From an uncultured delta proteobacterium (lineage in GTDB: Bacteria; Myxococcota; Myxococcia; Myxococcales; Myxococcaceae), in contig CAVYSY010000021.1 of assembly GCA_963771175.1 (NCBI GenBank), positions 160,001 through 224,000 of the forward strand: a stretch of 64,000 nucleotides of DNA, read 5' to 3'. The notes below the pieces were generated by a model that worked only from the letters and a program-made list of their open reading frames with translations, was not told where the DNA came from and made no database searches. Of this stretch, positions 8,986-55,271 are shown piece by piece. Within the stretch, counting starts at the first letter, position 1. The number at the start of each line of letters is the position of its first letter. The position numbers were made by a program, and so were the translations under genes.

Positions 8986-9010
8986 GGCTCTTCCGTGAGT
9001 GGGTGTGGAG

Positions 9011-9272
9011 TCAGACGTTGCGGTGGGCGCTGACGAACTCCGCGAGCGCACGCACGCTGGCGAAGTGGCGCCGGTTCTCGGCCGAGTCGGCGGAGAGCTT
9101 CACGCCGTACCGCTTCTGCAGCGCCAGGCCGAGCTCCAGCGCGTCGATGGAGTCCAGCCCGAGCCCCTCGACGAAGAGCGGCGCGGCGGCGTCGATGTCC
9201 GCCGGAGTGATGTCCTCGAGGTTGAGCGCCTCGATGATGCAGCTCCTTGATTTCCTGTTCAAGCGTCTGCAT
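9011..9272 (-). CDS. Acyl carrier protein 1 (ApeE-like), frameshift near 9240
   Basis: MQTLEQEIKE/IIEALNLEDI...GLGLDSIDALELG. Confidence 0.88.
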
Positions 9273-10038
9273 GGCGTGTTTGCTCCTGCGAGAAGTCCGC
9301 TTGCAGCCGGGCCGTGAGCTGCCGGGCCGCGAGCGACTCGCTGCCCGGCTCGGCGAGCAGCGGCGCCACGGGCAGGTCGTCACCGACCCGGATGGTGAAG
9401 GCCATGGGGCGGGGGGGCACCTGCCACCAGGCCGCCTCCTTGTTGAGGCCGAGCGGCTCGCAGCGGATGGTGACCGGGGTGATGTCGCACGGGCCCCGCA
9501 CCGCGATGTTGGCGGCCCCGCGCTGCAACTGCATGGGGCGGTTGAGGCGGGTGCGGGTCCCCTCCGGGAAGATGATGAGGTTGTTGCCGGCCTTCACCGA
9601 GGCGATGCAGTCGCGTACCAGGCCGGGACCCGAGTCGTTGCAGAGATATCCGGTGGCGCGGATGGGGCCGCGGGTGAACGGGTTCCTGGCCAGGCTCGCC
9701 TTCACCACGCAGTCCGCGTTCGGCACCAGCGCCACCAGGAACACGACGTCAATCAGCGTGGGGTGGTTGGCCACGATGAGCAGTCCCTGCCGGGCCAGCT
9801 TCTCCACGCCCTCGATGCGATAGCGCAGCACCCCGAGGCAGCGCATCCACTCGATGAAGAACCTGAAGCTGTGGTGCACCGCCAGCCGCGCCAGCCGCGT
9901 GAGCCGCGACCGGTCCCGCACGAAGAGCTGCAGCAGCGGGAAGTAGACGAGCCACAGCAGCAGCCCCCCCAGGCCGAACGTCGCGAAGGAGATGGCCGTG
10001 GCGACGACACGCCAGCCGCGCTCGAGCCTCTCAAGCAT
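9259..10038 (-). CDS. Lysophospholipid (PlsC-type) acyltransferase (ApeD-like)
   Basis: ANHPTLID and IFPEGTRT motifs; ATG at 10038 overlaps the upstream stop. Confidence 0.88.
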   Translation of the reverse strand: MLERLERGWRVVATAISFATFGLGGLLLWLVYFPLLQLFVRDRSRLTRLARLAVHHSFRFFIEWMRCLGVLRYRIEGVEKLARQGLLIVANHPTLIDVVFLVALVPNADCVVKASLARNPFTRGPIRATGYLCNDSGPGLVRDCIASVKAGNNLIIFPEGTRTRLNRPMQLQRGAANIAVRGPCDITPVTIRCEPLGLNKEAAWWQVPPRPMAFTIRVGDDLPVAPLLAEPGSESLAARQLTARLQADFSQEQTRHADA

Positions 10039-10765
10039 GGCGTTGCCACCGCCAGCGTCGATGACCCACCGGGTGCTCGAACTGCTCCGCTCCCGAGACG
10101 AGGAAGCGGAGCACGGCCAGGTCCGGCGGAAGCGCGTTCGTCCGGGGCTGACCGTCGTCCGAGCCCACCTGGCAGGAGAGCGTGAACCTGGACACCCTGC
10201 TGGCGGCCCGCAGGCGGCAGGCAAACGCGCGCGGGAAGTCCGCGGACTCCGCGAAGTGCTGCCAGGGCGAGGGGACCGGCTCGTCGTAGGCGACGACCAG
10301 GACGCTCTCGGCCCCGTCGGCCAGCAGGCCGCAGGCCTCGACGACCGCCGCCTCCACCGTCTCCGGTCCGGACGCCACGGCGCTGTAGGCGCCGGTGTGG
10401 CCCCGGATGATGGAGTAGAGGGCGCCAATCGCGTTGTGCACCGAGAGGCTGAAGGAGGCGGGCGAGAGGGGCTCCGACTTCGCCAGCTGCGTCAGCAGCT
10501 CCACCGAGCGCGTCAGGTCCCCGTAGCGGGAGGCGAAGACCACCGGGGTCTCCGCTGCGTCCGCCTGGCACCCGTACGCCGCCTGCAGCGCGATGCGTCC
10601 GAGGCGCTCCACGCGACGGCGCATCATCGCCGGCACCTCGGTCAGGGCCGGAGTGCCCTCCGTCGGGAGTGGGTGCGGCTGCGCGAACCAGGACTGCCAG
10701 GCAGTCGTGTCGGTGAGTCCAGGAGCCCAGGCCGACCACCGGTCGATGGCGAATTCAACAATCAT
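10031..10765 (-). CDS. Beta-ketoacyl synthase chain-length factor (ApeC-like)
   Basis: PAMMRRR, VFASRYGD, SPASFSLSVHNA; no catalytic Cys evident; first gene of the operon. Confidence 0.88.
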   Translation of the reverse strand: MIVEFAIDRWSAWAPGLTDTTAWQSWFAQPHPLPTEGTPALTEVPAMMRRRVERLGRIALQAAYGCQADAAETPVVFASRYGDLTRSVELLTQLAKSEPLSPASFSLSVHNAIGALYSIIRGHTGAYSAVASGPETVEAAVVEACGLLADGAESVLVVAYDEPVPSPWQHFAESADFPRAFACRLRAASRVSRFTLSCQVGSDDGQPRTNALPPDLAVLRFLVSGAEQFEHPVGHRRWRWQRHA

Positions 10766-10941
10766 GAGAAAGGGCTACGGGTCCGTCCGCCCCGCCACTA
10801 CCTCCGGACGAGAGGGGGTTCCTACCAAACCATCCAACACCTGACAAATGCCCCCAAAAGGAAGGAGGGCGATTGACGCCCGCCCCCTGTCGTGCGGCGG
10901 CTCTCACTCGAAGTGTGGACTGGGGGCCTCGGCTCGCGCCG

Positions 10942-11778
10942 TCAGGGGCCGCTGCGCTCCAGGTGGCGCTCGAGGAAGGCGCGGTAGTGCTCCTGGGCGA
11001 CGGGCAGCACGTCTCCGTGCTGGCCCCCTTCGACGAGGAGGAGCTCCTTGGGCTCGTTCGCGTTCGCGAAGACCTCCTGGCCGAACTCGACCCGGATGAG
11101 CTGGTCCGCCGTCCCGTGCGCGATGAACAGCGGCACGTGGATGGACCGGATGCGCCCGACGGTGTTCCAGGTGTCCTCGGCGATGAAGGAGATGGGGAAG
11201 TCCATCCGGGTCGAGTCGCGCTTGAGGCCCTCCACCGACATCAGGGGCGACTCGAGGATGAGCACCTCCGGTGGGTGGCCCTCGGCCCGCTGGGTGGCGG
11301 CGGCCGTCCCGAAGGAGTGCCCGTAGTAGATGAAGTGGGCCCCCGGCCCGCTGCGCTCCTGCAGCCACCGGAGGGCCGCGAGCGAGTCCTCGCCAATCCC
11401 CTCCTCGGTGGGAGGCAGGTCGGTCGAGGTCCCGAACCCGCGATAGTCGAACCCGAGCACGTCATAGCCGAGGTTGGACAGGCGCTTGATGCGCCAGAAC
11501 TGCAGGCCGAGGTGGGTGCCTGCGCCGTGGAAGAACAGGATGGCGCCGCGGGAGGGTTGCACCTCCGCCCGGACGTAGACCGCCCCCAGGGAGACCTCCT
11601 CGTTCACCTGGATGCGGACCTCCTCGACCCGCTCCGCCGACACCACCTCGGCCGGCTCGTCCGACTCCAGCTCGAAGGCGTAGGCGGTCACCCGCGGTGG
11701 AACGTAGAGGAACGGGTCCATCTTGCAGCCGGCGGCCAGCGCCAGGACCAGCCAGAGGACCCACGGTCTCGGACTCAT
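10942..11778 (-). CDS. Alpha/beta hydrolase lipoprotein
   Basis: Lipobox LAAGC; FDYRGFG, GHSFG nucleophile elbow, HGTAD, GGQH. Confidence 0.85.
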   Translation of the reverse strand: MSPRPWVLWLVLALAAGCKMDPFLYVPPRVTAYAFELESDEPAEVVSAERVEEVRIQVNEEVSLGAVYVRAEVQPSRGAILFFHGAGTHLGLQFWRIKRLSNLGYDVLGFDYRGFGTSTDLPPTEEGIGEDSLAALRWLQERSGPGAHFIYYGHSFGTAAATQRAEGHPPEVLILESPLMSVEGLKRDSTRMDFPISFIAEDTWNTVGRIRSIHVPLFIAHGTADQLIRVEFGQEVFANANEPKELLLVEGGQHGDVLPVAQEHYRAFLERHLERSGP

Positions 11779-12413
11779 CGCACCTCTCCCGGTCGCCAAC
11801 GGATGCCGAGGACCAGGCCCATCGCGCCCTGTCCTGCCACGCCCACCCAGGGGATGACTGTGCGTTCGGTCGGATAGTCCGGCGCGAACCAGCGCGCCTC
11901 GGCCTGCAGCCCGAGCTCTCCGAACCACAGCTGGGCGCCCGCCGCGGGTGAGACGAGGATCGGCCCTCCGGCGAACTGCGCGAAGCCGGTCACCGAGGCA
12001 TAGGGCAGCAGCCGCTCGCCGACGAGGTAGCTGGCGGTGGCGGTGGCCTCGAAATAGGCGGCGCTCTGCTTGAAGTCGGTGAACCCGAGCAGCCGTGCGG
12101 TCCCCGAGAGCGCGGGGATGGCACCGCGCTGCTCGAACAGCAGGTAGGTGGAGCCCACGTCGAGCCCGGCGAGCCCCACCAACAGCGGGGTCAAGTGGGC
12201 GTGGGCGTGCACGTCGAGGCGGTCCGCCACGCCGTAGCTCGCACCGGCCGTCAGGTGGGGCGCCGGAAAGGGAACGCCCCAGGAGGCGATGGGCCCCCCC
12301 ATGTCCGCCTGGAGCTGGAGCTGCCCCTTCGGCGTGGGCCGCACCGGACTGGTGTGCCCACAGCCGAGCGCCATCACAGCCATGCAACACATCACCCACA
12401 GCGAGGCCCGCAT
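11775..12413 (-). CDS. Hypothetical lipoprotein, possibly a beta-barrel
   Basis: Lipobox ALGC; alternating aromatic beta-strand pattern; stop overlaps the hydrolase start. Confidence 0.65.
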   Translation of the reverse strand: MRASLWVMCCMAVMALGCGHTSPVRPTPKGQLQLQADMGGPIASWGVPFPAPHLTAGASYGVADRLDVHAHAHLTPLLVGLAGLDVGSTYLLFEQRGAIPALSGTARLLGFTDFKQSAAYFEATATASYLVGERLLPYASVTGFAQFAGGPILVSPAAGAQLWFGELGLQAEARWFAPDYPTERTVIPWVGVAGQGAMGLVLGIRWRPGEVR

Positions 12414-12540
12414 CGCGGCGCGAGCATAGTCAACGCAGGGCGGATTCAGGAAGCCCGCCACGCAGGCCAGCTGGAGGGATGGGGGGAGGCAGTGCCATCC
12501 GCATCTCCAACTCAGGCGCTTGACTGGACCTCACGGCAGC

Positions 12541-12750
12541 TCACTCCTCGTCGGGCTCGCGGTGGCCGGGCCTGCCCGATAGGGTGTCTACCTGGACCAC
12601 GCGCCCTCCCTTGTCCGGTGAGCTCCTGGCCGCATCGACCTCCTCGGGTGTGTGGGGCGCCCCCTCCTCGAAGTTGTCGCCCTCCAGATTGCGCTGCCGT
12701 TGCTCGCTCGTGCTCCCGTAGCCCTCCCGCAGCTTCTTCTTGCCCGGCAT
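12541..12750 (-). CDS. Small acidic hypothetical protein
   Basis: MPGKKKLREGYG..., preceded by an AGGAG RBS. Confidence 0.5.
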   Translation of the reverse strand: MPGKKKLREGYGSTSEQRQRNLEGDNFEEGAPHTPEEVDAARSSPDKGGRVVQVDTLSGRPGHREPDEE

Positions 12751-13062
12751 TGCCCGCTCCTGGGTGAATGGTCCAGGCCCTGATGTTTGGGATGGGGGCC
12801 AGGGGCGGCAACGCCTCCAGCCCAGGTCGAACCCACCCCGAGTCCAATCCGGGGGAGGGCCTTCCCCATCGGCTCCCGGGCGGGCGAGCAATCGCGGCCA
12901 CAGGGCCGTGGCCCGGGGCCCGCATTCGACCGGCGCATCTCCTGGCTTTACAGGGAGTCAAGGGGGGCACGTCTGGTGCAGGACCCACCGGCCGACGAGG
13001 GGAATCTTCCTCCCGCTCGACTGTCGACGGAGACGCGCCCCACTGCTATGCACACCCACACC

Positions 13063-15234
13063 ATGGATGTCCGTCCCTCTCCGCGCCGCGCGCTGCTGCT
13101 GGCGCTGACGCTGTTGATGTCCGCCTGCAAGACGCCCTCCGCCGTGGGCGGTGGCACCTCGACCGGCAACTCGTCCGGCAAGTCTTCCAGCAACGGCAAC
13201 ACCCAAGACGTCCCCGAAGGCGATCCGTTCCCGAAGAGGCCCTCCGTGGAGGCCCGGAAGGACGCTCGGGCCGACGAGGCGCTCGCCCAGGCCATCCAGC
13301 AGGCCGAGATGCTGCCTCGCAAGCAGGCCGCCGAGTCCTTCCTGGCCGTGCGCAAGGCCTACCCGGAGACGACGGCGAGCCAGGAGGCCCTCTACCGCGC
13401 CGGCGTGCTCTTCTACGACTCGCAGGACTACGTCAACGCGCGAAAGACCTTCAACGAGCTGCTCTTCGAGAACCCGCTCCACCCGCAGGCCCCGGATGCC
13501 AAGCGCCGGTTGGGCCGCGCCGCGCTGGAGGTGGGTGCCTACCGCGACGCGTACCAGACGCTCTACAGCCTCGCCGAGCGCGCCGAGGGTCCCGAGCGCA
13601 CCCAGCTCCTCGAGGACGCCGCGAAGGCCGCGGAGAAGGCGGGCCTCTTCGGGCAGGCGCTGCAGATCGCCGTGGACCTCGCCGGTGACGCACGGACGCC
13701 CGAGGCGCAGCAGGCCGCGGTGGCCCGGGTGCAGCAGCTCGTGGAGGGTCGCGCGGGCTTCACGGACGTGGCGAAGGTGATGGACGAGCTGTCCCCAGCC
13801 AACCCCGCCTGGCCGGTGCTGACCTTCAAGCTGGCGCGCATCTACTACCACCTGCGGGACTGGACCCGTCTGGAGGAGACGCTCAACCGCTTCCTGGCCG
13901 AGGCCCCCTCGCACCCCTTCGCGGGTCAGGCCCGCGAGCTGCTCGCGCGCGCCACCCGGCGCGTGGAGGTGCGCCCCAAGACGGTGGGTCTGCTGCTGCC
14001 CATGTCCGGCAAGTACAAGGCCGTGGGCGAGGCGGTGCTGCGCGGCGTGAAGCTGGGCCTCGCCGGCAGCGACGTGGAGCTCGTCGTCAAGGACACCCAG
14101 GGCGACGTGAACACCACCGCCCAGGCCATGGAGCAGCTCGCCTTCGACGAAGGCGCCATGGTGGTGCTGGGCCCCATCGTCTCGGATGATTCGCGGCGCG
14201 CCGCGCTGGTGGCCGAGGAACTCCAGGTCCCACTCATCAACCTCTCGCGCCTGGAGGGCATCACCGACATCGGGCCCTACGTCTTCCGCAACATGCTCAC
14301 CAACGAGGCCCAGGCTCGCGCCATCGCCGAGTTCGCGATGAAGCAGAAGGGCTTCAAGAGCTTCGCGATGCTCTACCCGAACCTCCCGTACGGGGTGGAG
14401 CTGGCCAACGACTTCTGGGACTACGTGACGGAGAACGGTGGACAGGTGCGCGGCGCCGAGTCGTACGCGCATGACCAGACCACCTTCACCACCGAGGCCA
14501 AGAAGCTGGTGGGCCGCTACTACCTGGAGGATCGGCTCGACTACGTCGAGAGCGTGCGCGAGGCGCAGCAGCAGACCAGCGGCCTGGATGCGTTCCGCAA
14601 GCGCAAGGCCATGGAGAAGGTGAGGGGCAACGTGGAGCCCGTCATCGACTTCGAGGCCATCTTCGTCCCCGATGAGTGGAAGCGGGTGAGCCTGGTGGCT
14701 CCGGCGCTGGCGGTGGAGGACATCGTCACCAATGCGTGCGACGCGCGCGACGTGGAGCGCATCCGCAAGACGACGGGCAAGAAGGACCTGAAGACGGTGA
14801 TGCTGCTGGGTACCAATGCCTGGAGCAGCTCCAAGGGCGCCAGTGGCCTGCCCGAGCTCATCGAGCGCGGCGGCAAGTTCGTCACCTGCTCGGTGTACGT
14901 GGACGGCTTCTTCGTGGACTCGCAGCGGCCGGCCACGCAGCGCTTCGTGAAGGCCTACCGTCAGGCGAACACCGGCGATCCGGGCCTGCTGGAGGCCTAC
15001 GGCTACGATTCGGCGCGCATGGTGCGGCAGATCATGGACTCGAAGCAGGCCCCCAGGAGCCGCGGTGAGTTCCGCGAGGCCCTGGCCAACCTGAAGGACT
15101 TCGACGGCGCCACCGGCAAGACGTCCTTCGACGAGAAGCGCGAGGCCCGCAAGCCCCTGTTCCTCCTCTCCGTGAGCAACAAGGGCATCACCGAGGTGCC
15201 TCCGGAGAAGACGGCGGCGTTGGGGGGCTCGTGA
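13063..15234 (+). CDS. LpoA/LppC-like lipoprotein (TPR plus periplasmic-binding fold), putative PBP activator
   Basis: Lipobox MSAC; TPR-like helices; VGLLLPMSG, VLGPI, AYGYDSA, FDGATGKTSFD. Confidence 0.82.
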   Translation: MDVRPSPRRALLLALTLLMSACKTPSAVGGGTSTGNSSGKSSSNGNTQDVPEGDPFPKRPSVEARKDARADEALAQAIQQAEMLPRKQAAESFLAVRKAYPETTASQEALYRAGVLFYDSQDYVNARKTFNELLFENPLHPQAPDAKRRLGRAALEVGAYRDAYQTLYSLAERAEGPERTQLLEDAAKAAEKAGLFGQALQIAVDLAGDARTPEAQQAAVARVQQLVEGRAGFTDVAKVMDELSPANPAWPVLTFKLARIYYHLRDWTRLEETLNRFLAEAPSHPFAGQARELLARATRRVEVRPKTVGLLLPMSGKYKAVGEAVLRGVKLGLAGSDVELVVKDTQGDVNTTAQAMEQLAFDEGAMVVLGPIVSDDSRRAALVAEELQVPLINLSRLEGITDIGPYVFRNMLTNEAQARAIAEFAMKQKGFKSFAMLYPNLPYGVELANDFWDYVTENGGQVRGAESYAHDQTTFTTEAKKLVGRYYLEDRLDYVESVREAQQQTSGLDAFRKRKAMEKVRGNVEPVIDFEAIFVPDEWKRVSLVAPALAVEDIVTNACDARDVERIRKTTGKKDLKTVMLLGTNAWSSSKGASGLPELIERGGKFVTCSVYVDGFFVDSQRPATQRFVKAYRQANTGDPGLLEAYGYDSARMVRQIMDSKQAPRSRGEFREALANLKDFDGATGKTSFDEKREARKPLFLLSVSNKGITEVPPEKTAALGGS

Positions 15235-34787: not shown

Positions 34788-37377
34788 CTACCGCGTCGCC
34801 AGCGCGTCCACGTGCTGGCGCAGGGCCACTTCATTCTCCAGCCGCGAGCTGAGCCCGGTGATGGGCTGCGCGGCCTGGGCGATGCGCCCGCGCGTCCGCG
34901 GGCCCGCGGCCACGAGCCACGCCACGCCGAGGGCGAGCTCGGCCACCTCGGGTGCACCCCCGAGCTCGGGCACGAGCGCGAGCAGCGCCTCCACGGCCTT
35001 CTTCACCTGCGCGCCGTGCAGTGCATGGCTGCTGGTGATGCCCTGGCGCAGCAGCTCCAGCAGGGCGAGCGCGGTGGCACGGGCCTGGCGCACGGGCTCG
35101 GGGCCCGTGCCGGTGCCCGCCCACAGGCCACTGGCGAGCTGCTTCTCGAGCAGGCCCACTCCACCGTCGGCGGCGACCGACTCCTCGGCGACCCCCTGCT
35201 CCCTACGAACCGAGAACTGATCCGCCTGCTCCAAGAGGGCTTCATCGTCGTAGCTCGAGACATCCGCGGAGGCGACGATCTCCTGGGGCTCGGGCGCCGC
35301 CTTGTCCTTGAACAGGCCGCCGAGGAATCCGCCCTTCTTCTTCTTCTCCGCCTCCATGCGAGCCGGAGCGGCGGGCGCCGGGGGCGGGGGCGCGTACGAG
35401 GCGGAGGCCGGAGCGGCGGCCATGGGCATGGGCCGGGCAGGAGCCGGAGGCGGTGCACCCATGGGGAAGCCCGGGGCCGAGGCCTTCTGGAGCTTCGGAG
35501 CCGCCCTGCTGCGACGCACCGCTCCACCCGAGGAGGGCGGGAGCGCGGCGCCCTCCGCCTCCTCCTTGGCCGTGCCGAACATGGCCCAGCCGGCCGGGGC
35601 ATGGACGGGGACGACGCGCGTCTCCGGCTGGCCCGAGGCGCGGCGCTCGCCGGTGCGCTCCTCCACCACCACGAAGGAGGTGTACTGCGTCACGATGCCG
35701 TGCGCGAGCGCGAGCTGGACGATGCGCTCCTTGAGGGCCTGGGCGCGCCGGCCCACGAGCGCGGCGTCCTGCCAGGCGCGGATGCGCTCGGCGGCCCACA
35801 GCTTCTCCACCGCGGGCCGGTCGCTCTCGGCGGGGAAGCTCACGGGGATGGAGAGCGAGAACGTCTCCGCCCCGGACTTGCCCTTGAGCACCACCTTGCC
35901 CGTGCCGGGCGTGGTGTAGCGGCCGAAGAGGCTCCACGGCGTGCCGTCCACGAGCTGCGGCGGCTCGGCGGGGGCCAGCTCCGTGGCCTCCACGCCCTCG
36001 AAGCGCACCTCCACGCCGGTGACGCGGGGCGCGAGCGCGCGGGAGAACTGGGCCACCACCTTGTCGTCGATGCGCTCGCCGGGGTGGATGAACTCCACCG
36101 CGCCGCCCGTCTGCCGGGCCATGTCCTTGAGCAGCACGTCACTCACGTTGGTGCCGATGCCGAAGGAGTAGATGCGCGCCGTCTGCCGCGCCCCCATCAC
36201 CGCGTTGAGGATTTCGGACTCGTTGCCCACCTGGCCGTCGGTGAGGAGCACCACCACGCCGTCCGGCACGGCCCGCACCGCGGCCTGCATGGGCTGGAGC
36301 AGCTCGGTGCCACCGTCGGCGTGCAGCGCGGCCACCCAGCGGTCGGCCTGCTCCAGCGTCTTCTGGGTGAAGGTGACGGGCTCGGGCGAGAAGAGGCGGA
36401 TAGGAGTTCTCGAAGGCGATGATGTTGAAGCGGTCACCCTCGCGCAGGTGGCGCAGGCACAGACGGAGCGCGCCCTGGGCCTGGGGGAGGCTCTCGCCGC
36501 CCATGGAGCCGGAGGTGTCCACCACGAACACCACCTCCTGGCGCTTGGGGCCCGCGGCCATGCCCAGCAGGTCCGGCACCACGGTGAGGGCGAAGGTGCC
36601 AGGGCCCTCGCCCTTGCGGTGGGTGACGAGCGTGGTGAGCGGGGTGCTCGTGTCCGGGCTGCGCACGCTGAGCACGATGTCCCGGTCCAGCGCCACGTTC
36701 GGCTGGGAGAGCTTCACGCGCGTGCCGCCCTCGGCGCGCGAGACGTCCAGCTTGTGCGAGGGGCTCTCCACCACCACCTCGCGGCCGAGCGAGATGAGCA
36801 GGTCCATCGTGAGGCCGTAGCGCGCGTCGCCCACGGGCGGGGTGATGCGGTCCGCGTCGGGTACGCGGTCGGTGGGGTCGGCCGCGCCGTGGGCGGTGCG
36901 ATCGCCCTGGGGCTTGCCGGGGATGTAGCGGGGGGCGACGAGGGTGGGCAGGGCCCAGCGCACGCAGCCCTCCTCCACCTGGATGGCCTGGAGGAACTCC
37001 ACGTCCACCAGCGTCTCCTCGCCGGGCAGCAGGTTGCCCACCTGGGCGGTGAAGACGTTGGGGCGCTCCTGGTCGAGCAGCGCGGCGCCGTGGCCGGCCG
37101 TCACCGCGTCGTCATAGGTGCGGAAGGCCTCCTCGCGCTCCTTGAGGATGCCCTGCACGCGGCGCCCGGCGCACTCCATGGAGAAGGCGGTGAGGGTGGC
37201 GTCCGAGGGGAGGGGAAAGACGTAGACGGCCTCGACCGGCTTGGACTCGGTGTTGCGGTAGCGCTGGCGCACGCGCACCCGGGCGTGACCTCCGAGAAGC
37301 TCACCCGTGACGTCCACGCCCTGAAGGGGGACCTGCGCACCGCTCTGCGTGTACAGCCCTGCCTTGACGTTCTCCAT
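34788..37377 (-). CDS. VIT + vWA domain protein, frameshift near 36410
   Basis: EAVYVFPLP (VIT), VFVVDTSGSMGG (MIDAS), GGTELL, LLTDGQV, FGIG, YTSFVVVEER. Confidence 0.88.
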
Positions 37378-37381
37378 GGCT

Positions 37382-37876
37382 CTACCTTTCCTGGGACTTC
37401 TGGATGAGGGCGCGCACGCGTTCGGCGAGCGCCCGGGTCTTCTCGTCCGCCGTGTCGGCGAGGTGCAGCTCCAGCCCCGGCGCCAGCTCCCATCGGCGCC
37501 AGCTTGTCACCCCATCGGATGGGGAGACAGACGCCTCGGCCTTGGCCGGACTCCTGGGGAGGACGGGCTCGGGGGCCGCGGGGGCGGGGGCCGCGGGGCT
37601 TTCGGGTTCGGTCTCGCCGAGCGCCTTCAGCTCGTCGGGACCCAGCCGCGTCAGCTCCACCTGGATGGCATCGAGCGGGAGGAACTTCGCCTGCAGGGCC
37701 CGGATGGCCTTGAGGCGCAGCAGGTGCTCCTCCCCATAGACGGTGTCCGGCCCCTTGAAGGGCGGGGCGGGCAGCAGCCCGCGCTGGACGTAATAGCGCA
37801 CGGTCCGCGGGGACACGCCCGCCTCCTCGGCCAGCTCCGTCAGCTTCCACTCCTTGCGTGTCGTTGTCGTGCTCAC
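37382..37876 (-). CDS. MerR-type HTH transcriptional regulator
   Basis: LTELAEEAGVSPRTVRYYVQRGLLP...YGEEHLLRLKAIR. Confidence 0.88.
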   Translation of the reverse strand: MSTTTTRKEWKLTELAEEAGVSPRTVRYYVQRGLLPAPPFKGPDTVYGEEHLLRLKAIRALQAKFLPLDAIQVELTRLGPDELKALGETEPESPAAPAPAAPEPVLPRSPAKAEASVSPSDGVTSWRRWELAPGLELHLADTADEKTRALAERVRALIQKSQER

Positions 37877-45343: not shown

Positions 45344-45416
45344 GCCCAGGTAGCTCAGTCGGTAGAGCAGGGGACTGAAAATCCCCGTGTCGGTGGTTCG
45401 ATTCCGCCCCTGGGCA
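45344..45416 (+). tRNA. tRNA-Phe (GAA), CCA not encoded
   Basis: Cloverleaf GCCCAGG/CCTGGGC acceptor stem, D-arm TAGCTCAGTCGGTAGAGC, anticodon loop CTGAAAA, T-loop GTTCGATTC. Confidence 0.97.
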
Positions 45417-45442
45417 CTTCCCAAAGAGTTCGCAGCAAGCCG

Positions 45443-45478
45443 AGGCCGATACGCATCCCGTATCGGCCTTTTGCTTTT
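45443..45478 (+). terminator. Intrinsic terminator after tRNA-Phe
   Basis: 11-bp stem AGGCCGATACG/CGTATCGGCCT followed by TTTGCTTTT. Confidence 0.8.
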
Positions 45479-45495: not shown

Positions 45496-48400
45496 TCAGC
45501 GCTCCATCGCACGCAGGAGGCACAGGGCCCAATTGGTATCAATCCACCGGGTCGAGCCCTTCGGCGTTCCTTCCAGGTAGCGGAGTCGGTTCACCCGCGC
45601 CTCATCCAAGATGCTCCCCGTGCTGCGCGCGTCGTCGCGAGCGAGGAGCGCCCAAGCGACGTCGGTCAGGGAGACCGTTCGTTCCTCGAAGCCACCTTCG
45701 CCGCCATCAATGCGCACGCCTCCTTCGGAAGCGATGCCTACGATGCGACAGCGCTTGCCGTCCTCCTCGATGGTGCGGCCAATGGGATGGGTGCTCAGCA
45801 GGTTCTTGACCTGCTCCGAGGCTCGTTCGAGCGCTCCCTCGGGAAGTCTGCGGGAGCTTCGACGTCCGTGCCCGAGTGCTCGCCAGGTGGCGTAATCCAC
45901 CGGCTCTGAGAGTGCCCAGCGGTCCTCTTCCTCCAGCCAGCGCGCCACGCCGTCATACCTCCAGGGCTCCTCTGGCGAGAGCCGGGTCAGCACGAAGGCC
46001 GTTTCCGCCGGGCGGCGATCCTCGATGCGCAGCTTCAGGCAATCGGGCTCGGTGAGGAGTCCCTTCTCGGTCACGCAGAGGAAGAGGTGGCCCGTGTGGC
46101 GCCCGGTCCTTGGCGGTGCGGTGAGTCCAAAGGCCTTGATGACGTCCTCCTCCGTCATTCGCTCGCCCACGGCGGGTCCTAGTCGTTCAGGCTGAATCAC
46201 CTCCACGAGCTGTGCGATGGGGACCACGTCCTCAGTCGTCTCGAAGGACGGCCGCGACGGATTGTCGGAGCGCAGAATCCATCGGCCCTTCTCTCGCACG
46301 ACCCGCTTCACCTGGTACCCGTAGCCGGCCGAGTCCGGCACCTGCACGAGCGCCACCTTTCCCTCGACCACTCCGATGCCGGCTGCTCGCGCGTAACGCA
46401 TCACGAGCCAATCCCCATCCCGAATCGGACGCTCGCCTCCATCCATGGAGTCGCCGGACGCACGTACCGCGAACAGTCCCGCGTCACTTGCCTGGACTGG
46501 CAGGCTCACCCGCTCCGCTTCGGGCGCGCCCTCTAGCGCGATCGTGTGGGTTGCCGCACCCGCCGCGGCACGCAGGCTCGGGAAGGCCACGAGGGTTCCC
46601 CGGCGGGGCAGGGGAATGACTTCCGCATCCACGGGAGCTACCCACCACCCATCCGGGCCTGGTGTGAAGCGCACCCGGAAGGCCGTGCCCGGTTTGCCAG
46701 CTCCAGGACCGAACCAACGCCGCATCAGATCTGGCAGGGCATTGCGGTCCGTTCCCACCGGCCGGGCCACGTTGCAGAACTCCTTCATCAACCGGAAGCG
46801 CCAGGCGACTGCCATCCGGGAGTCGCACATCCAGCTCACCCCGAGGCAGGTCTGGCCTCTTGAGCCGATCTGGCAACTTGAGGATGGGGTCGCGCTTGTT
46901 CGAGAGGACCTTGGTTTCGAAGGCCGCACCTGGAGCTTCCGTGCGTTGCCCGAGCGCGGTATTGCGCGAGGCGGTAGTCCACCAGCTCCCGGGTGAGCTC
47001 CAGGAATGCCTCTTGCGCGTCCTCCGGAATCGGCAGGCGCGGAGATGAAGCGGTCTCCGTCCACGCGGAACCACGGGCTTCCCGTCCACGCCTGGATCGG
47101 GTTTTCCTTCCAGTAGGCGAGAAAGCGTTTCGGCTTCGGGTTGCGTCGTAGTCTCCCAGTGCCTTGACTCCCTCCAGGTCCCTCAGCAGCTCCGGAGAAC
47201 GGCGCAGGAGGGCGAGGCTGCGCTCGGCCAGCTCCGGGAGTGACAGTCCTTCTTCCCAGCCCCGGCTTCGAGCAGCGCCTCCAGAAGGACCATCTTGAAG
47301 CTCTTGCTCATCTGCGTGGTCTCGAGCTCCTCGAACCATGCGGCTCCCGCCTCCTGCGCATGGGTCTCCTTCGCTGTCAGGTCTCCTTCGCGCTGCACGA
47401 ACCGCAGCCAGCCTCCGTGTGCCTCGCGCAGTGTCGCCGGGCGGTAACCCAGCCGGTACATCTCGCCCGCAGTGGGTCGCCGTCCCCAGGCCTCCCGCAG
47501 CTCGCGGTACACCCGCTCCACCTCGCTGCGCTCCGCTCGGCAGCAGCTTCGCCAGCAGGTTCTTCGCCTCCAGCTCCACCTGCATCGAGCAGCCCGGTGG
47601 CAGCTCGGGCTCCATGCCCTCCACGAGGAAGTCTCGCAGCGACAGTTGCTCGCTCCTGTCCGTCAGTGCCAGCAGCGCGCGCACGCGGTCCAGGAACACC
47701 CGGTGGTTGCCCACGAAGTCGATGACCGTGACAGCCGCCTTCGTCTCGGCTTTGCGCAGCCCGCGCCCGAGCTGCTGCAGGAACACCACCGGCGACTCCG
47801 TGGGACGCAGCATCACCACCCGGTCCACGCTCGGGACGTCCACGCCCTCGTTGAAGAGGTCCACCGCGCAGACCGCGTCCAGCTCGCCGCTCGCCAGCTT
47901 CCTCAGTGCCTCGGCCCGGTCATCCGTTCCGGGGGCCGAGTGAACCGCGACCACCCGGACACCCTGGGCCTTCAGCCAGCCCTCTCACGTACTCCGCGTG
48001 CGCCACCGAGCAGCAGAAGACCAGCGTGCGCGTCGCGCGATGCGCCTCCCACGCCGTCCACATCCGCTGCATGCGCGCTTCCGTCTGCACCGCCTCCGCG
48101 AGCCTCTCCGGGTCGAAGCGCCGGTTGCGCCAGGGGATGTTCTCGTACGCCACGTCGTCCTTCAGCCCGTGGTACGCGAACGGCACCAGCAGCCCGCGCG
48201 CGATGCCCTCGCCCACGTCCGCCCGGTAGGCGAGGTGGTCGTCGAACAGGCCCAGCACGTCGCCCTCGTCCGCGCGCTCCGGCGTCGCCGTCAGCCCGAG
48301 CAGGAACGCGGGTTTCAGGCGCCCCAGGATGGCCCGGTAGCTCGCCGCCGCGGCGTGATGCACCTCGTCCACCACCACGTAGTCGAAGGGCGCCACCTCC

Positions 48401-49752
48401 CGGAGGCTGGCGAGCGCTCTCGGGTCGCGACAGCTTCTGCACCGAGGCGAAGACCACGTCTCCGGCGAGGCTCGACCGCTCCGCGACGAACCAGCCGAAG
48501 CGCGATTCGGGGAACTGCCGCCGGAACGTCTCCGCCGCCTGGGTCAGCAGCTCCGCCCGGTGTGCGAGGAACAGCACCCGCGCTCGTCGGCCCAGCGTCT
48601 GCTCGAAGGCCTCCACGTCGAGTGCCGCCAGCAGCGTCTTTCCCAGACCCGTCGCCAGCACCACCAGGGCTCGCTGGCGCCCCTCGTCCCGGCTGCGTGC
48701 CAGTGCCGCGAGCGCCTCCCGCTGAACCTCGTGCGGCTGGCGCGGCGGCTCGCACGGGCTCCGCTTCCGCCTCCCCGGACGGCAGGGGACGGGCCACCTG
48801 TCGCGCTCGGGCTTCGTATCGCTCGACCCAGGCCGCGTCGAAGCGTCAGGGCCCTCGTCCACCAGCCCTCGAAGGCGTCCACCACGTCCTGGTACGCCGC
48901 GTGGGTCGCTGTCTCGCTCGACGCGCAGGTTCCACTCCACGCCCGTCCGCAGCGCCGCGTGCGACACGTTGCTCGAACCGACGAAGGCCGCCGCCAGCCC
49001 CACTCCCTCGAAGCGCCAGGACTTCGGGTGGAAGGAGCGTCCCAGCCTCTCCGTTTCCACCACGCGCGCCTCGAAGGTTCCCCGAGAGGCTCGGGGTTGC
49101 TCCTCGTCCTCCTCGCGCCGGGCTTCGCTCTCATCCATCCAGTCGAGCAGCCGCCTCAGCGCCGCCGCCTGGGTGATGGCCAGGTAGTCCCCGGTGAGGA
49201 TGCGCACCCGCGCGCCTCGGGCCAGCGCCGCCTCCACCGATTCGCGCAGCACCTCGAGCCCGCTGTCCTGCACGAAGGCCGCCAGCACCGCCACGTCCGG
49301 GGCCCGCGCGAACAGGGGCTCCAGGTGCCGCAGGAATGGGTCCTCCAGGCCTCCCGTGGCCAGCGGTTTCGCCGAGGTCGCGAGGTAGTTGCCCTTCCCT
49401 GGAATCACGTGACGTACGCCGCCCCGCGGGTCCGCCATGTCTCCTCGGAAGCGCGGGAATCACGTGCACGTGCAGGTGGAACACCGTCTGTCCCGCCGCC
49501 TCGCCCACGTTGAAGCCGACGTTGTACCCGTCCGGCCGGTGGCTCTCGTCCAGCCCGCGTTTCACCTGCGTCCACCAGCTCGAAGAGGGCCCGCTGCTCC
49601 TCCGGCGTGGCCTCGAACCATGTGGCCACCGGTCGGCGCGGAATCACCAGGGTGTGCCCCGGGCTCACCGGGTAGCGGTCGCGGATGGCGAAGGCCAGCG
49701 CGTTGGATGCTACCCACTCGGACTCGGGTACCTTCAGGAAGGGGGAACTCAC
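45496..49752 (-). CDS. Multidomain HIT - PLD nuclease - SF2 (DEAD/DEAH) helicase - S24 peptidase protein, putative anti-phage; many apparent frameshifts
   Basis: HIT: DRYPVSPGHTLVIP...GQTVFHLHVHVIP. PLD: FHPKSW...FVGSSN...EWN. Helicase: LATGLGKT, DEVHH, GLTATPER, DLFNEGVDVP, QQLGRGLR. S24: VRASGDSMD...QVKR. Confidence 0.8.
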
Positions 49753-50028
49753 GCGCGCACCGTACCCCACGCGGCTCGTCCTTCAGAGCCACCGCAGCAG
49801 GTCTCTTCATGATGTGGCGGAGGTCTTGCGTGGCTCGCTTTCCCCGCCGGAGCGGCCCGTCTACCCTGCCCGAGCAATTCATCTTGGGAGGTGGGGCCCT
49901 CAAGACCTTCCTCGAGAAGCTGGACGGCGTCGTCTACTGACGAGACCTGCGCGGTCTGTACGACGGCGGACGTCGACTCGCGGAGGTGACTTTCCAAGTC
50001 ACACCCCGGGATGCATCCTCCGGTCGTC

Positions 50029-50503
50029 ATGAGTACCTACCAATATTACGAGTTCCAGGCCGTGGACCGGGCGCTCACTCCCGCCGAGCAGGACGCGCTG
50101 CGCAAGCTGTCCACCCGTGCGGACATCACCTCGTCCCGCTTCGTCAACGTCTACAACTATGGGGACTTCAAGGGCGACCCGGACCGCTTGATGGAGCGGT
50201 ACTTCGATATCTTCGTCTACATGGCCAAAGGACGCGCTCCTCCTGCGCGTCATGCAGGGCCCGGAGCCCCTGCTGGCGGCGGAGCTGCTTCGCCGCTTCC
50301 AGGAGGCCCGACCCCGTGAGCGGGGCGCCCAGGCCGCCGACGCCCGGCGCACGGTGGGGGAGCTCCGGGCCGAGGCCGAGGTGCTCGAGGCCGAGCGCTC
50401 GCGGCGTCAGTCGAAGAAGGAGGCACGGGCGCGGGCCCGCGAGCTCGAGGCGCTCGCGGCGCGTGAAGGAGAGGCCTGGCTCGAGGTCCTCGGGACGGTC
50501 TGA
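50029..50503 (+). pseudogene. Internally truncated conserved hypothetical protein
   Basis: Protein-like N-terminus MSTYQYYEFQAVDRALT...YNYGDFKGDP breaks near 50230 and resumes in another frame (RRTVGELRAEAE...EAWLEV). Confidence 0.55.
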
Positions 50504-50666: not shown

Positions 50667-52316
50667 ATGAAGCCACTGGTGGAAGAGACGGACGTGCTCA
50701 TCGTCGGCTGCGGCCCGGTGGGTGCGCTCACAGCCAACCTCCTGGGTCTGTACGGGGTTCGCACGCTCGTCCTCGAGCGAGAACTCACCCAGCACAGCCA
50801 GCCTCGCGCCATCACCTGTGACGACGAGGCCATGCGCATCTACCAGGCCGTGGGTCTCGCCGACGTCCTCGAACCCCACATGTACACCGCCCCCGAGGTG
50901 GAGTTCACCGGCACCACCGGCGAGCTCTTCGCCCGCATCACCGTCCAGGGGCTCGACTTCGGCTACGGCTTCCCCGTCCTCCGCTTCTTCAGCCAGCCCT
51001 ACCTCGAGACCGTGCTGCGCCAGGGGCTCTCTCGCTTCCCCCACGTCGAGCTGCGGCTCGGCCAGCACGTCGAGGCCTACACCCAGGACGCCCAGGGCAT
51101 CTCCGTCACCGTCCGCGATGTCCGCGACAACAGCGAGCGCACCGTGCGCGCCCGCTATGTCCTGGCCTGCGACGGTGGTCGCAGCATCCTGCGCCAGCTC
51201 GCCGGAATCGAAATGGTGGGCGCCACCTACGACGAGGGAATGATTGCCATCTCCCTCCGCCTTCCCGAGCCGCCTCCGCCCCTGTGCCGCATGGTGTGCG
51301 ACCCCTTCCGCCACATCTTCGTCGCCCGCTGCGCCGACAACGAGATGCGCATCGAGTGCATGATTCGCGAGGACGAGAAGCCCGAGGACCTGCTCCGGCC
51401 CGAGTGCCTCCGTGAGTTCATCTCCCCCTACGTGGATCCGGACCGCGCCACCATCCTCCGCGCCGCCGCCTACATCTTCAACCGCCGCCTGGCCTCGCGC
51501 TGGCGCGACGGGCGGCTCTTCCTCCTTGGCGACGCCGCCCACCTCATGCCGCCCGTCCTGGGCCAGGGGCTCTGCTCCGGCCTGCGCGATGCCCACAACC
51601 TCGCCTGGAAGCTGGCGGCCGTCCTTCGCGGCCAGGCCGACGAGCCGCTCCTCGACACCTATGAGCTGGAGCGCCGCCCCCACGCCCAGGCGATGCTCGA
51701 CGCCAGCGTGAACATGGGCCGCATCGTCCTCACTGGCGTCCGCCCGATCGCCGTCCTGCGCGACCACCTCATCCGGGCGATCGACCGCATCCCGCGCGTG
51801 CATCGCTTCATCCAGAACTTCGAGTTCAAGCCCCGGCCTCTCATCGCCCGCGGTTTCATGTTGGGGGGCTCCCGCGGCCACCGCCAGGCTCCCGAGGGGA
51901 CGTACTTCCCCCAGCCTCGCGTGGGCGCGCCGGGCGGCGGCGTGGTGCGGCTCGATGAGCTCCTGGGTCCCGGCTTCGCGGTGCTCGTCCACCCCCACAC
52001 CCGCGAGGTCTCCCTCCGCGCCGCCCAGGCGCTCGCCGAGAGCCTCGGTGCCCGCTGCCTGCGCATCATCCCGCCGCGCTCCGGTCAGGCCCATCCCGGC
52101 GAGGTGGTGGATCTCGAGGGCAAGCTCGACGCGTGGTTCCGCGAGCACCGGGTGGAGATCGCCGTCCTCCGTCCGGACCGCTACCTCTTCGGCGCGGTGC
52201 GGGGCTCGCACCTCGCCTGGCTCGCCGCGGCACTGCGGGGGTGGATCCACTCGCCCCTCCGTCTGGAGGCGACCGACTTCGAGTCCGGTGGTGCGTTCAG
52301 CTCCCCGGCGGTCTGA
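50667..52316 (+). CDS. FAD-dependent aromatic monooxygenase (MhpA-like)
   Basis: GCGPVG, ACDGGRS, LLGDAAHLMPP.LGQG, RDAHNLAWKL, LRPDRY. Confidence 0.9.
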   Translation: MKPLVEETDVLIVGCGPVGALTANLLGLYGVRTLVLERELTQHSQPRAITCDDEAMRIYQAVGLADVLEPHMYTAPEVEFTGTTGELFARITVQGLDFGYGFPVLRFFSQPYLETVLRQGLSRFPHVELRLGQHVEAYTQDAQGISVTVRDVRDNSERTVRARYVLACDGGRSILRQLAGIEMVGATYDEGMIAISLRLPEPPPPLCRMVCDPFRHIFVARCADNEMRIECMIREDEKPEDLLRPECLREFISPYVDPDRATILRAAAYIFNRRLASRWRDGRLFLLGDAAHLMPPVLGQGLCSGLRDAHNLAWKLAAVLRGQADEPLLDTYELERRPHAQAMLDASVNMGRIVLTGVRPIAVLRDHLIRAIDRIPRVHRFIQNFEFKPRPLIARGFMLGGSRGHRQAPEGTYFPQPRVGAPGGGVVRLDELLGPGFAVLVHPHTREVSLRAAQALAESLGARCLRIIPPRSGQAHPGEVVDLEGKLDAWFREHRVEIAVLRPDRYLFGAVRGSHLAWLAAALRGWIHSPLRLEATDFESGGAFSSPAV

Positions 52317-52391
52317 GGGCGGGGCGAGCCCTCGGGGGAATATCCAGGTGCTCCACCCGTTGGGTGGGGCCTTCGAGCCAAGGGAGTGCGG

Positions 52392-53798
52392 ATGCTCAGA
52401 CAGAAGTTGCTCGTCACGGGATTGGTGCTGCTGGCGGGGACGGCCGCGTGTGCCCAGGGTCGGTCCGCGCGGGCCGAGACGGCCATCGCCACCGCCGCGT
52501 CCAAGCCCGGCGCGGACGTGCGGACGAAGACGCTGAAGAACGGCTTGAAGGTCATCGTCTGGCCGGACCACGGACATCCCCAACGTCGCGCTCTACAACT
52601 GGTTCCGCGTGGGCAGCCGCAACGAGCGCCCCGGCATCACCGGGCTCTCCCACTTCTTCGAGCACATGATGTTCAACGGCGCGAAGAAGTACGGCCCCGG
52701 GCGAGTTCGACCGCGTGCATGGAGGCCGCACGGCGGCCGCAACAACGCCTACACCACCGAGGACGTCACCGTGTACCAGGACTGGTTCCCGCGCTCGGCG
52801 CTGGAGACCGTCTTCGACCTGGAGGCGGACCGCATCGGCCACCTCGCCATCGACCCCAAGGTCGTGGAGAGCGAGCGCGGCGTCGTCTACTCGGAGCGCC
52901 GCTCCACCGTGGACAACGACAACACGCGGCCTGCTCATGGAGCAGGTGCAGGCCACCGCCTTCGTCGCGCACCCCTACCAGATTCCCGGTCATCGGCTGG
53001 CCCAGCGACATCGAGCGCTGGACGCAGGAGGACCTCGAGAGCGCTACTTCCGCACCTACTACGCGCCCAACAACGCCACGCTCATCGTGGCGGGCGCCGT
53101 GACGCCCGAGGAGATCTTCGCGCTCGCGGAGAAGTACCTCGAGCCCATCCCCGCGCAGCCCGCCGCCCGAGCCGGTGCGCACCGTGGAGCCGCCGCAGCA
53201 GGGCGAGCGCCGCGTCGTGGTGCGCAAGGCGGCGCAGGCGCCGCTGCTGCAGATGGCCTTCCACGGCCTCAAGGCGCAGTGACGTGGACGCCGACGCGCT
53301 CGACCTGCTGGTGCGCATCCTCACGGACGGAGACTCCTCTCGCCTGCACCGCGCGGCTGGTGGAGGAGACGCAGGTGGCCATCAGCGTGCGCGGCGTACC
53401 TGGACGCGGGCTTCGACCCCTCGCTCACCTGGATGCTGGTGGACCTGCCGCCCGGGGGCGACCTGGGCAAGGCGGAGTCGCTGCTCGACGAGGAGCTGGC
53501 GAAGGTGGTGTCCAGGAGGGCGTCACCGACGCGGAGCTGCGCAAGGCGAAGAACATCGTCGTGGCGGACTTCTGGCGCCACCTGGAGACCAACAGCGGCC
53601 GCGCGCAGGCGCTGGGCACCTACGAGGTGTTCCACGGCGACTGGACAGAAGCTCTTCGACGCCCCCGCCCGCTACGAGGCGGTGACGCGCGAGCAGGTGC
53701 AGAAGGTGGCCGCGAGGTGTTCTCGCGCGAACAACCGCACGGTGGGCGTGCTGGTGCCCGAGGCTGGCGACGAGGCGAAGAAGGAGGCGGCGCGATGA
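52392..53798 (+). CDS. M16 zinc protease, catalytic subunit; multiple frameshifts
   Basis: [28 protein letters not shown] (HxxEH), NAYTTED. Confidence 0.85.
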
Positions 53799-55271
53799 AG
53801 GGACTCACGGGGAAGGCGGCGCTCGCGGCGCTGCTGGTGGCCTCCAGCGCGGGAGCCGAGGCGGCGAAGGCCAGTCGCCCGGCGGCGCAGCAGGTGAAGC
53901 AGGCCGCGGTGGTGGACGCGGTGACGCTGCCCAGGGCCACGGTGGTGGAGCTGAAGAACGGCGCGAAGCTGCTCCTGGTGGAGAAGCACGAGGTGCCGCT
54001 GGTGGCCTTCAGCGCGCGGGTGCGCGGCGGGCTCGCTCGGCGACCCCGAGGGCAAGGAGGGCGTGGCCGCGCTCACCGCCGAGCTGCTCCAGAAGGGCGC
54101 CGGCTCGCGCAATGCCGACCAGTTCGCCGAGGCGGTGGACAGCGTGGGCGGCATGCTGGAGGTGCCCGCGGGTCGCGAGTCGCTGCTGCGTGCAGCGGGC
54201 AGTTCATGGCGCGGGACACGGCGCTGATGGTGGAGCTGCTCTCGGACCTGCTGCAGCGCCCGCGCTTCGAGCCGGCGGAGCTGGACAAGACGCGCGCGCG
54301 CATGGTGTCGGAGCTCGCGGCGGAGAAGGACGGCGACCTGCGCGGCGTCGTCGGCACCTACTTCAACGCCTTCCACTTCGGGGCGCACCCGTACGCGCGC
54401 CCGGTGGCCGGCAGCGAGGCGTCGCTCGCCACCCTCAAGCGCGAGGACGTGCTGGCGTACGCGCAAGGCGCAGCTGGGGGGGACCGGCTCATCCTCTCCG
54501 TGGTGGGCGACTTCGACGCGAAGAAGCTCGCGAAGCAGCTCGAGGCGGCGCTCGGTGGCTGGGGGCGCGCGGCCGCTGCCGGCCCCGGTGGCTTCGCCTC
54601 ACCGCAGTCGCTGAAGGGTCGGCGCGTGCTGCTGGTGGACAAGCCGGACGCCACGCAGACGTACTTCTGGGTCGGCAACACCGGCATCTCGCGCACGGAC
54701 CCCGCTCGCGTGGACGTGGAGCTGGCCAACACGGTGTTCGGCGGCCGCTTCACCTCGCTGCTCAACACCGCGCTGCGCGTGAAGTCCGGCCTCACCTACG
54801 GCGCCGGTTCGCTGGTGATGCGCGAGACGCAGCCGGGGCCCGTTCGCCATCTCCTCGTACACGAAGACGGAGTCCACCGCGCAGGCCCTGGACCTGGCGC
54901 TCGACATCCTCGAGGGCTACCGCCAGCAGGGGATGGACGACGCCACGCTCGCCTCCGCCAAGGAGTACGTGCTGGGCCAGTTCCCCCCCACGCTGGAGAC
55001 GGGCCTGCAGCTCGCCGCGAAGCTGTCCGAGCTCGCCTTCTACGGGCTGGACGCGAGCGACGTGGACGGCTTCGCCGCGAAGGTGACCGGCGCGGACAAG
55101 GCGCGCATCCAGGCCGCCATCCAGCGCGTGCTGCCCTCGCGCGAGGACCTGACCGTGGTGCTCATCGGCAAGGCCTCGGCCATCCGCGAGGTGGCGCGCA
55201 AGTACGGCACCGTCACGGAGATGAGCATCACCGACCCGCACTTCGCTCCCGCGCCAAAGCCGGGCCGCTGA
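53795..55271 (+). CDS. M16 protease, non-catalytic partner subunit; multiple frameshifts
   Basis: [11 protein letters not shown], no Hxx[24 protein letters not shown]. Confidence 0.82.

Follow-up and report, generated by a model that had tools for sequence, protein, structure and literature searches.

What protein is encoded on the minus strand between positions 45496 and 49752 of the DNA analysed here, and why does its reading frame break repeatedly? The window, a stretch of 64,000 nucleotides from contig CAVYSY010000021.1 of an uncultured delta proteobacterium of the Myxococcaceae, carries at this place a HIT (histidine triad) domain, a PLD nuclease, a complete SF2 helicase and an S24 peptidase, which follow each other colinearly from a GTG codon to a stop codon while the frame changes. 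An earlier note, based on the sequence letters, had proposed a single polypeptide of about 1400 aa with this domain order, had compared it with the restriction enzyme SauUSI, and had advised resequencing and a search for intact homologues of the same architecture. We consider that the whole explanation is a SauUSI-like restriction enzyme with added HIT and S24 domains, encoded by one gene whose frame break is an artefact, and we assign this a probability of roughly 0.7.

Every motif named in the earlier note was found on the minus strand, colinear and in different frames, and the gene boundaries it gave are right. The GTG start is followed by SSPFLKVPESEW, in agreement with the N-terminus of the family. 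Pfam was run on the ten minus-strand open reading frame (ORF) pieces of the gene, and in four of these no Pfam family was detected. A profile made from 10 intact relatives hits nine successive frame segments and spans profile positions 3-1410, a colinear match that is far beyond chance. The closest intact relative, P0152 (1,416 aa), shares 87.8% identity with the window copy over 1,413 aligned residues; the alignment begins at the GTG at 49752 and reaches the last codon at 45499. Because intact relatives of ~1,410 aa share the domain order and the alignment to P0152 spans the gene, the locus is, as judged by sequence alignment, a single gene for a protein of ~1,416 aa.

The architecture is real and widespread. 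A search with the last 468 aa against 1.84 billion representative proteins (E≤1e-3) gave 518 matching proteins, many of which are 1,300-1,460 aa long and match at their C-terminus. HIT, PLDc_2, ResIII, Helicase_C and S24 were found together by Pfam in 7 of the 15 relatives scanned. In a second search, in which 120 longer relatives were listed with domains taken from precomputed Pfam assignments, HIT was present in 102 and both HIT and S24 in 96, so that the intact homologues for which the earlier note had advised a search do exist and show the same domain order. The listed relatives are annotated merely as 'DEAD/DEAH box helicase family protein' or similar, and their hosts are Archangium, Vitiosangium, Pyxidicoccus, Sorangium, Polyangium, Anaeromyxobacter and one Planctomycetes metagenome-assembled genome (MAG). 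Separate HIT and S24 genes were rejected since fused intact relatives exist.

Table 1. Features of the gene and of its 3′ flank in the window. Minus-strand motifs are listed in the direction of reading.
Feature	Position	Strand	Basis or remark
Whole gene, frameshifted copy of a ~1,416-aa protein; order HIT, PLD, SF2 helicase, coupler, beta domain, S24, C-terminal domain	45496..49752	-	Frameshift-aware alignment, profile segmentation, GTG start
HIT (histidine triad) domain	49425..49752	-	Pfam, two frames; frameshifts near 49569 and 49457
HLHVHV	49478-49461	-	Motif search
PLD-family (HKD) nuclease domain	48917..49246	-	HPK, GSSN; alignment to SauUSI nuclease
HPK	49030-49022	-	Motif search
GSSN	48979-48968	-	Motif search
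SF2 (DExH) helicase-like ATPase	47754..48736	-	ResIII, Helicase_C, PADLOC; frameshifts near 48418 and 47982
GLGKT	48649-48635	-	Motif search
DEVHH	48369-48355	-	Motif search
TATP	48291-48280	-	Motif search
QQLGRG	47777-47760	-	Motif search
Helical coupler, then beta-rich domain	46580..47753	-	Six frameshifts near 47531, 47253, 47149, 47043, 46949 and 46807
MSKSFKMVLLEAL	within ORF 47183-47521	-	In helical coupler
AAAG, candidate LexA-like self-cleavage site (Ala-Gly)	46569-46558	-	37 residues upstream of catalytic Ser
S24 peptidase domain (LexA, lambda CI, UmuD type)	46231..46551	-	Pfam, Foldseek, Ser/Lys
GDSM (Ser)	46455-46444	-	S24
QVKR (Lys)	46314-46303	-	S24
C-terminal domain, 238 aa	45499..46212	-	Model of the window's own tail, pLDDT 91.7
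Stop codon	45496-45498	-	
Terminator-like hairpin and T-run between tRNA and gene stop	45442-45470	+	12-pair stem, then TTGCTTTTGG
tRNA-Phe (GAA)	45344-45417	+	ARAGORN; sole tRNA in window, convergent with gene

The central part of the protein identifies the kind of enzyme. A profile of 35 intact relatives matched SauUSI (7clg_A) with an E-value of 3e-121, profile positions 110-838 corresponding to chain residues 15-720, and 7clg was also the top Foldseek match (E 9.3e-10) of a structural model of the relative P0186. This model (pLDDT 84.5) runs from Helicase_C to the C-terminus over 857 aa and shows, one after the other, a coupler made of helices, a beta-rich domain, the S24 barrel and a tail of mixed alpha/beta structure. 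According to the available part of PMC7913695, SauUSI is active as a dimer, with the nuclease at residues 1-191, the coupler at 618-805 and a target-recognition domain of SRA fold (Pfam DUF3427) at 806-953. The profile alignment thus ends inside the coupler, and the P0186 model has helices there. The PADLOC model for type IV restriction enzymes (mREase_IV, PDLC03659) matched the window pieces colinearly with 93.2, 65.8 and 103.9 bits and the intact relative P0153 of Archangium violaceum with 314 bits, covering only profile positions 44-617 of 945. Pfam detected ResIII in two frames (66.6 and 44.2 bits) and Helicase_C (37.6 bits), and PLDc_2 scores reach 33 bits in intact relatives, at or above the cut-off in some of them. 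Residues expected in catalysis are conserved: in the 35 relatives HPK and GSSN are invariant, as are GKT, Asp455, Glu456, His458 and His459 of DEVHH, TAT of motif III and the arginines of motif VI. On this sequence and fold similarity the PLD-helicase-coupler core is homologous to SauUSI, and for this core the comparison made in the earlier note was correct.

The Pfam score for Peptidase_S24 is 32.2 bits (cut-off 23.3), and Foldseek superimposed the P0186 model on the C-terminal domains of lambda CI (1f39, TM 0.84, root-mean-square deviation 2.2 Å) and LexA (6a2r, TM 0.73); the cleavage-site fragment 2hnf and the RecA-bound CI structure 8gmu were also matched. Ser1093 of GDSM and Lys1140 of VKR are invariant in the 35 relatives, and so are Ala1054, Ala1055 and Gly1056 of the candidate cleavage site. 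Among 26 aligned S24 regions, all of which have GxSM and a nearby lysine, the site upstream of the serine is AAG in 19 of 19 proteins of the HIT type and ACG in 7 of 7 HIT-less ones. The scissile pair is Ala-Gly in LexA and CI and Cys-Gly in UmuD. The conserved Ala-Gly or Cys-Gly pair, together with the serine and lysine, is the main argument that cleavage really takes place, and the cut would then be at that bond.

The domain could instead be non-cleaving, purely a scaffold or dimerisation element that sits between motor and recognition domain. In LexA and lambda CI the C-terminal domain also forms a dimer interface, and a few relatives lack the S24 motifs. That SauUSI is a dimer (available part of PMC7913695) would also agree with a scaffold role. 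This is nevertheless unlikely in view of the invariance of Ser, Lys and Ala-Gly in the 35 relatives, and because the divergent HIT-less subfamily shifts to Cys-Gly, the other known S24 scissile pair, and shows no decay of the site.

Pfam recovered the N-terminal HIT domain as two pieces that score 36.3 and 34.6 bits against a cut-off of 21.5. The pieces account for profile positions 6-56 and 62-94, and in intact relatives the score rises to as much as 86.5 bits. Of the histidine triad, His91 is invariant and His87 and His89 are conserved in at least 90% of the 35 relatives. The best PDB matches (2eo4, 3imi, 3wo5 and 1fhi) are of the Hint, Fhit and Ap4A-phosphorylase types, and the best NCBIfam match is an Ap4A-phosphorylase-type model that scores far under its cut-off. 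No aprataxin was present among the 60 PDB matches listed for the family profile.

Two parts follow the coupler besides the S24 barrel. The beta-rich domain of ~100 aa (WRFRL...WFGPGAGKPGTAF) has its strands at residues 377-474 of the P0186 model, and in its sequence pattern it may resemble B3-type DNA-binding domains. The C-terminal tail gave weak Foldseek matches (E 0.08-0.5), mostly to the SRA domains of UHRF1, UHRF2 and Np95, to SauUSI (probability 0.96, 132 columns), to TagI and to ScoMcrA. Three distant relatives (P0140, L073 and L077) have Pfam DUF3427 after S24, at the position of the tail. The modelled tail is probably a divergent SRA-like target-recognition domain with an extra alpha/beta subdomain.

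The arrangement of these parts varies among related loci. From a genome scan with helicase patterns 80 loci were listed, to which the closest Archangiaceae genomes do not belong, and their architectures were typed by tblastn and Pfam. The full architecture is present in L001, L002, L004, L010, L023 and L070. HIT-PLD-helicase-beta domain proteins that lack S24 and end in a canonical DUF3427 half are found for example in L012, L021, L024 and L025 and likewise in L036, L040, L047 and L052; in L029 and L045 the protein stops directly after the beta domain. HIT-less PLD-helicase-S24 proteins occur with DUF3427 (L073, L077) and without it (L053, L054, L061, L080). These loci with and without S24 show that S24 is an optional module placed just before the known or putative recognition domain. 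Two of the loci (L006 and L035) contain two paralogous copies each. A class I methyltransferase domain lies in-frame upstream of the HIT-less PLD-helicase-S24 gene in L076 (9230-12883) and L077 (2357-6244), either as a true N-terminal fusion or as an adjacent gene without an intervening stop.

The broken frame was analysed by frameshift-aware alignment. Compared with P0152 the gene has 13 frameshifts, 11 with one extra base and 2 with one missing base, no in-frame stop and no codon indel, and alignment to P0153 yields the identical 13 sites. As a control, the same kind of alignment was made for the M16 peptidase gene at 53795-55268 (+), a conserved neighbour that has no relation to the target gene. 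It has five single-base shifts and no stop at 89.6-90.0% identity to P0272 and P0274, and its orthologues are intact proteins of 489 aa across Myxococcaceae and Archangiaceae. The density of shifts is ~3.4 per kb in the M16 gene and 3.1 per kb in the target gene. Far from the latter, single Pfam profiles are divided over two overlapping frames in an aromatic amino-acid lyase gene (~4.55 kb; frames ~4525-4896 and 3275-4801, minus strand) and in a VIT-VWA gene (~36.4 kb; ~36142-37506 and 34791-36713, minus strand), which indicates further frameshifts. Because the shifts are only of single bases without stops and neighbouring genes are broken likewise, sequence error is likelier than a pseudogene. 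We hold it very probable that the split frame results from sequencing or assembly error, and the gene is probably intact in the organism. The errors are patchy and no particular sequencing chemistry is implicated; homopolymer-linked errors were rejected, as none were seen at the 13 sites.

A true, recently inactivated pseudogene, for instance a restriction gene killed by indels after becoming toxic, would explain the presence of 13 frameshifts within 4.25 kb at sites that are not homopolymer-linked, so that the usual homopolymer miscalls are not the cause, and next to three intact flanking genes (LysR, amidohydrolase and FAD monooxygenase). This explanation is rather improbable. In-frame stops, codon indels and deletions are missing, and the identities to orthologues (87.8% to P0152 and 82.5% to Archangium violaceum) are at the level of a core gene, the value for M16 in A. 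violaceum being 81.8%. The GC bias by codon position is still strong in every frame segment of the target gene. Eleven of the 13 shifts are extra bases, but natural gene decay is usually deletion-biased. The M16 gene 4 kb off has five similar shifts and the lyase and VIT-VWA genes are split as well, and that every one of these genes should be a pseudogene is unlikely. We also rejected programmed frameshifting and an alternative genetic code in view of the 13 shifts, the plain open frames of the relatives and the damage to neighbouring genes. The practical message is that the region of ~45.5-55.3 kb needs polishing, and the advice to resequence was apt, given 13 single-base indels and the same type of break in neighbouring genes.

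Frame breaks were seen elsewhere too. In L010 and L016, which are MAG contigs named tig... from long-read assemblies, the family gene is likewise split between frames, which again suggests that breaks of this kind are frequently errors of assembly. The M16 gene used as control belongs to a tandem pair of pitrilysin-family genes (52386-55271, +), of which the upstream one (52386-53800) hops between frames. Just upstream of the start of the target gene, at 50011-50503 (+), are two overlapping short ORFs without a Pfam match; one starts with STYQYYEFQAVDRALTPAEQDALRKLS, E, A and R abound in the other, and the pair resembles a single small gene divided by a frameshift. At 8100-10100 (-) the codon-position GC track shifts frame four times in 2 kb on one strand, which could reflect several short genes or another error-rich patch.

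The genomic surroundings are unremarkable. The gene converges on tRNA-Phe, as the earlier note had observed, and its stop lies 78 nt from it. The idea that the tRNA flank served as an insertion site did not hold: none of the 16 direct-repeat families touches the tRNA, the flanking genes that were scanned contain no integrase or transposase domain, the neighbours are ordinary, and a tRNA is nearby in 1 of 30 related loci. A tRNA-targeted island was therefore rejected. In a scan for hairpin and T-run patterns two sites were found in the region, with a shuffle mean of 2.0, and the count alone is not significant. The neighbours in the window are a trehalose-synthase-like glycosyltransferase, NfeD, amidohydrolase, LysR, FAD monooxygenase, M16 peptidases, DUF1615, an M4 peptidase and an acyl-CoA dehydrogenase. 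The similar identities of the target and M16 genes to their A. violaceum counterparts would fit vertical descent.

Eight related loci with long flanks have no conserved partner gene, and because of this we consider that the gene acts alone, like type IV enzymes. A defence setting has moderate support from the PADLOC and Pfam matches around these loci. L070 is flanked by PDC-S01, a type III restriction fragment and an HNH protein, L016 by PDC-M30A (PADLOC) and a PIN-HTH pair and IS66 (Pfam), and L002 by a canonical SauUSI-type gene (835 bits, PADLOC). L004, L010 and L023 gave generic kinase or radical-SAM matches only. In L002, a Planctomycetota MAG, the PLD-helicase-DUF3427 gene (6540-9710, -) stands head-to-head with the full HIT...S24 gene (9986-14272, +), and a Methyltransf_32 gene lies beyond the SauUSI-type gene. 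The family protein of this MAG (L002/P0184) is ~59-60% identical to the query, the level seen with Sorangium, which suggests horizontal spread.

The same observations were weighed for a function in DNA repair, in which the protein would be an SOS-tied end-processing enzyme and not serve restriction or defence. The HIT domain would strip nucleotidyl adducts and PLD would serve as a phosphodiesterase for blocked ends. The helicase would make the lesion accessible, and S24 would link the activity to RecA filaments in the manner of UmuD. Such a role would be in agreement with the occurrence of the gene across Myxococcota, where identity drops with taxonomic distance much like that of a core gene, with the lack of a conserved partner or methyltransferase partner, and with ordinary neighbours in the window and in two of the eight loci. 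The well-studied S24 self-cleavers LexA, UmuD and lambda CI respond to RecA and DNA damage, which would also suit a repair enzyme. However, SauUSI is by far the closest solved structure across nuclease, motor and coupler, and the type IV restriction model of PADLOC is the best match in the defence library. Sister architectures end in DUF3427, the target-recognition domain of SauUSI, and the tail is weakly SRA-like. The family gene stands beside a canonical SauUSI-type gene in one locus, and the Planctomycetota copy suggests horizontal spread. The HIT matches are of the Hint, Fhit and Ap4A-phosphorylase types, and aprataxin does not appear among those listed. A repair function is for these reasons quite improbable.

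Several observations weigh against the explanation as a restriction enzyme with an artefactual frame break. At domain level, the PLDc_2 score of the window piece (24.0 bits) is under the cut-off of 27. The beta domain before S24 found no match in Pfam (E≤5), in PDB sequences (E≤10) or in the Atlas, and the tail none in Pfam and none by Foldseek at E≤0.001; comparison of the tail with DUF3427 C-terminal halves by hhalign was weak, with 20% probability over 42 columns. The S24 module is not universal, since 3 of 29 sequences (L009, P0082 and P0140, of which P0140 has GDSM) lack the GxSM...DGD pattern. Concerning the frame, the shift sites have no tie to homopolymers, with a mean longest run of 2.77 compared to 2.66 at random positions, and the FAD monooxygenase gene (50667-52316) is intact though it lies inside the affected stretch. 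The context adds to this: the neighbours of the window gene are metabolic, and specific defence-type neighbours were found by PADLOC in only 3 of the 8 loci and none in 2 (L001 and L009), so that support is only moderate. Finally, DNA cleavage, modification dependence, self-cleavage and HIT activity are only inferred from sequence comparison, and so are a role in defence, a switch by proteolysis and what the HIT domain does.

In view of the above, a mechanism can be considered for the proposed restriction enzyme. The enzyme would recognise its target, probably a modified base, through the C-terminal domain, after which ATP would drive the helicase-like motor along the DNA. By analogy with SauUSI, the PLD domains of a dimer may form a shared DNA-cutting site. 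The HIT hydrolase could act on a nucleotide, a dinucleotide polyphosphate or a nucleotidylated end. The S24 domain, located in the linker between motor and recognition domain, would cleave itself at Ala-Gly, probably promoted by RecA on single-stranded DNA as for LexA, CI and UmuD. Such a cut would part the recognition domain from the nuclease-motor and tie restriction to DNA damage or phage replication. The outcome could go either way: the enzyme may be switched off, which would represent restriction alleviation and protect the chromosome during repair, or an untargeted nuclease may be released at phage attack. It is tentatively suggested that the protein has a built-in SOS sensor, in which RecA filaments on damaged or phage single-stranded DNA trigger the Ala-Gly cut and turn restriction off or on. 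The HIT domain would then add a nucleotide-hydrolysing step, acting on an alarmone, on nucleotidylated DNA or on protein-DNA intermediates.

Restriction enzymes are usually viewed as always on, and the known relief of restriction after DNA damage runs via separate proteases. Control by post-translational self-cleavage is undescribed for any restriction enzyme in the openly searchable literature. The full texts searched, which did not include subscription journals or REBASE, contained no paper that ties HIT or S24 to SauUSI, DUF3427 or type IV restriction, and the architecture is not mentioned in the available parts of PMC7159879, PMC6765204, PMC7913695 and bioRxiv 2022.05.11.491447. The earlier note had not recognised a named, characterised system, and none with the same architecture emerged from the openly searchable full-text literature. 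The protein belongs to a known kind of enzyme, of which it represents an uncharacterised variant. What makes it of interest is that a widespread family, with 518 representative clusters matching S24 plus tail, has a LexA-type hinge with a conserved site exactly between motor-nuclease and putative recognition domain. If true, a single protein would allow a direct test of how sensing of DNA damage is linked to restriction. Fusion to HIT recurs in 102 of the 120 listed relatives and hints that type IV restriction includes a nucleotide-dependent step as yet unexplored.

Comparison with known systems places the protein closest to SauUSI (PDB 7CLG), the type IV, ATP-dependent and modification-dependent enzyme of Staphylococcus aureus. 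Enzymes of the SauUSI type cut DNA modified with 5mC or 5hmC in an ATP-dependent manner. In both proteins a PLD (HxK) nuclease is followed by an SF2 DExH ATPase and then by a helical coupler, and the recognition domain of SauUSI, like the putative one here, is C-terminal. As described in the available part of PMC7913695, SauUSI has neither HIT nor S24 and its target-recognition domain follows the coupler directly. In the window protein a beta domain and S24 lie between coupler and tail, and the tail has no Pfam match to DUF3427. The sister HIT-PLD-helicase-DUF3427 proteins are alike from HIT to the beta domain (query residues 1 to ~1,035, 38-49% identity), but have the canonical DUF3427 end and no S24 module. 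With Hint, Fhit and Ap4A phosphorylase the protein shares the HxHxHxx triad and the domain profile of the HIT superfamily; those proteins are small and free-standing, whereas here HIT forms the N-terminal part of a fusion with a restriction-type nuclease. ThsC, the HIT protein of a defence system in PADLOC, is distantly similar (41 bits). LexA, lambda CI and UmuD (MEROPS S24) agree with the window protein in the S24 fold, in the paired Ser and Lys, and in an Ala-Gly or Cys-Gly pair ~35-40 residues before the serine. They act as small repressors or as subunits of a polymerase, and their cleavage sheds a DNA-binding or inhibitory N-terminal part, whereas the S24 domain of the window protein is embedded near residue 1,050 of a nuclease-helicase of 1,416 aa.

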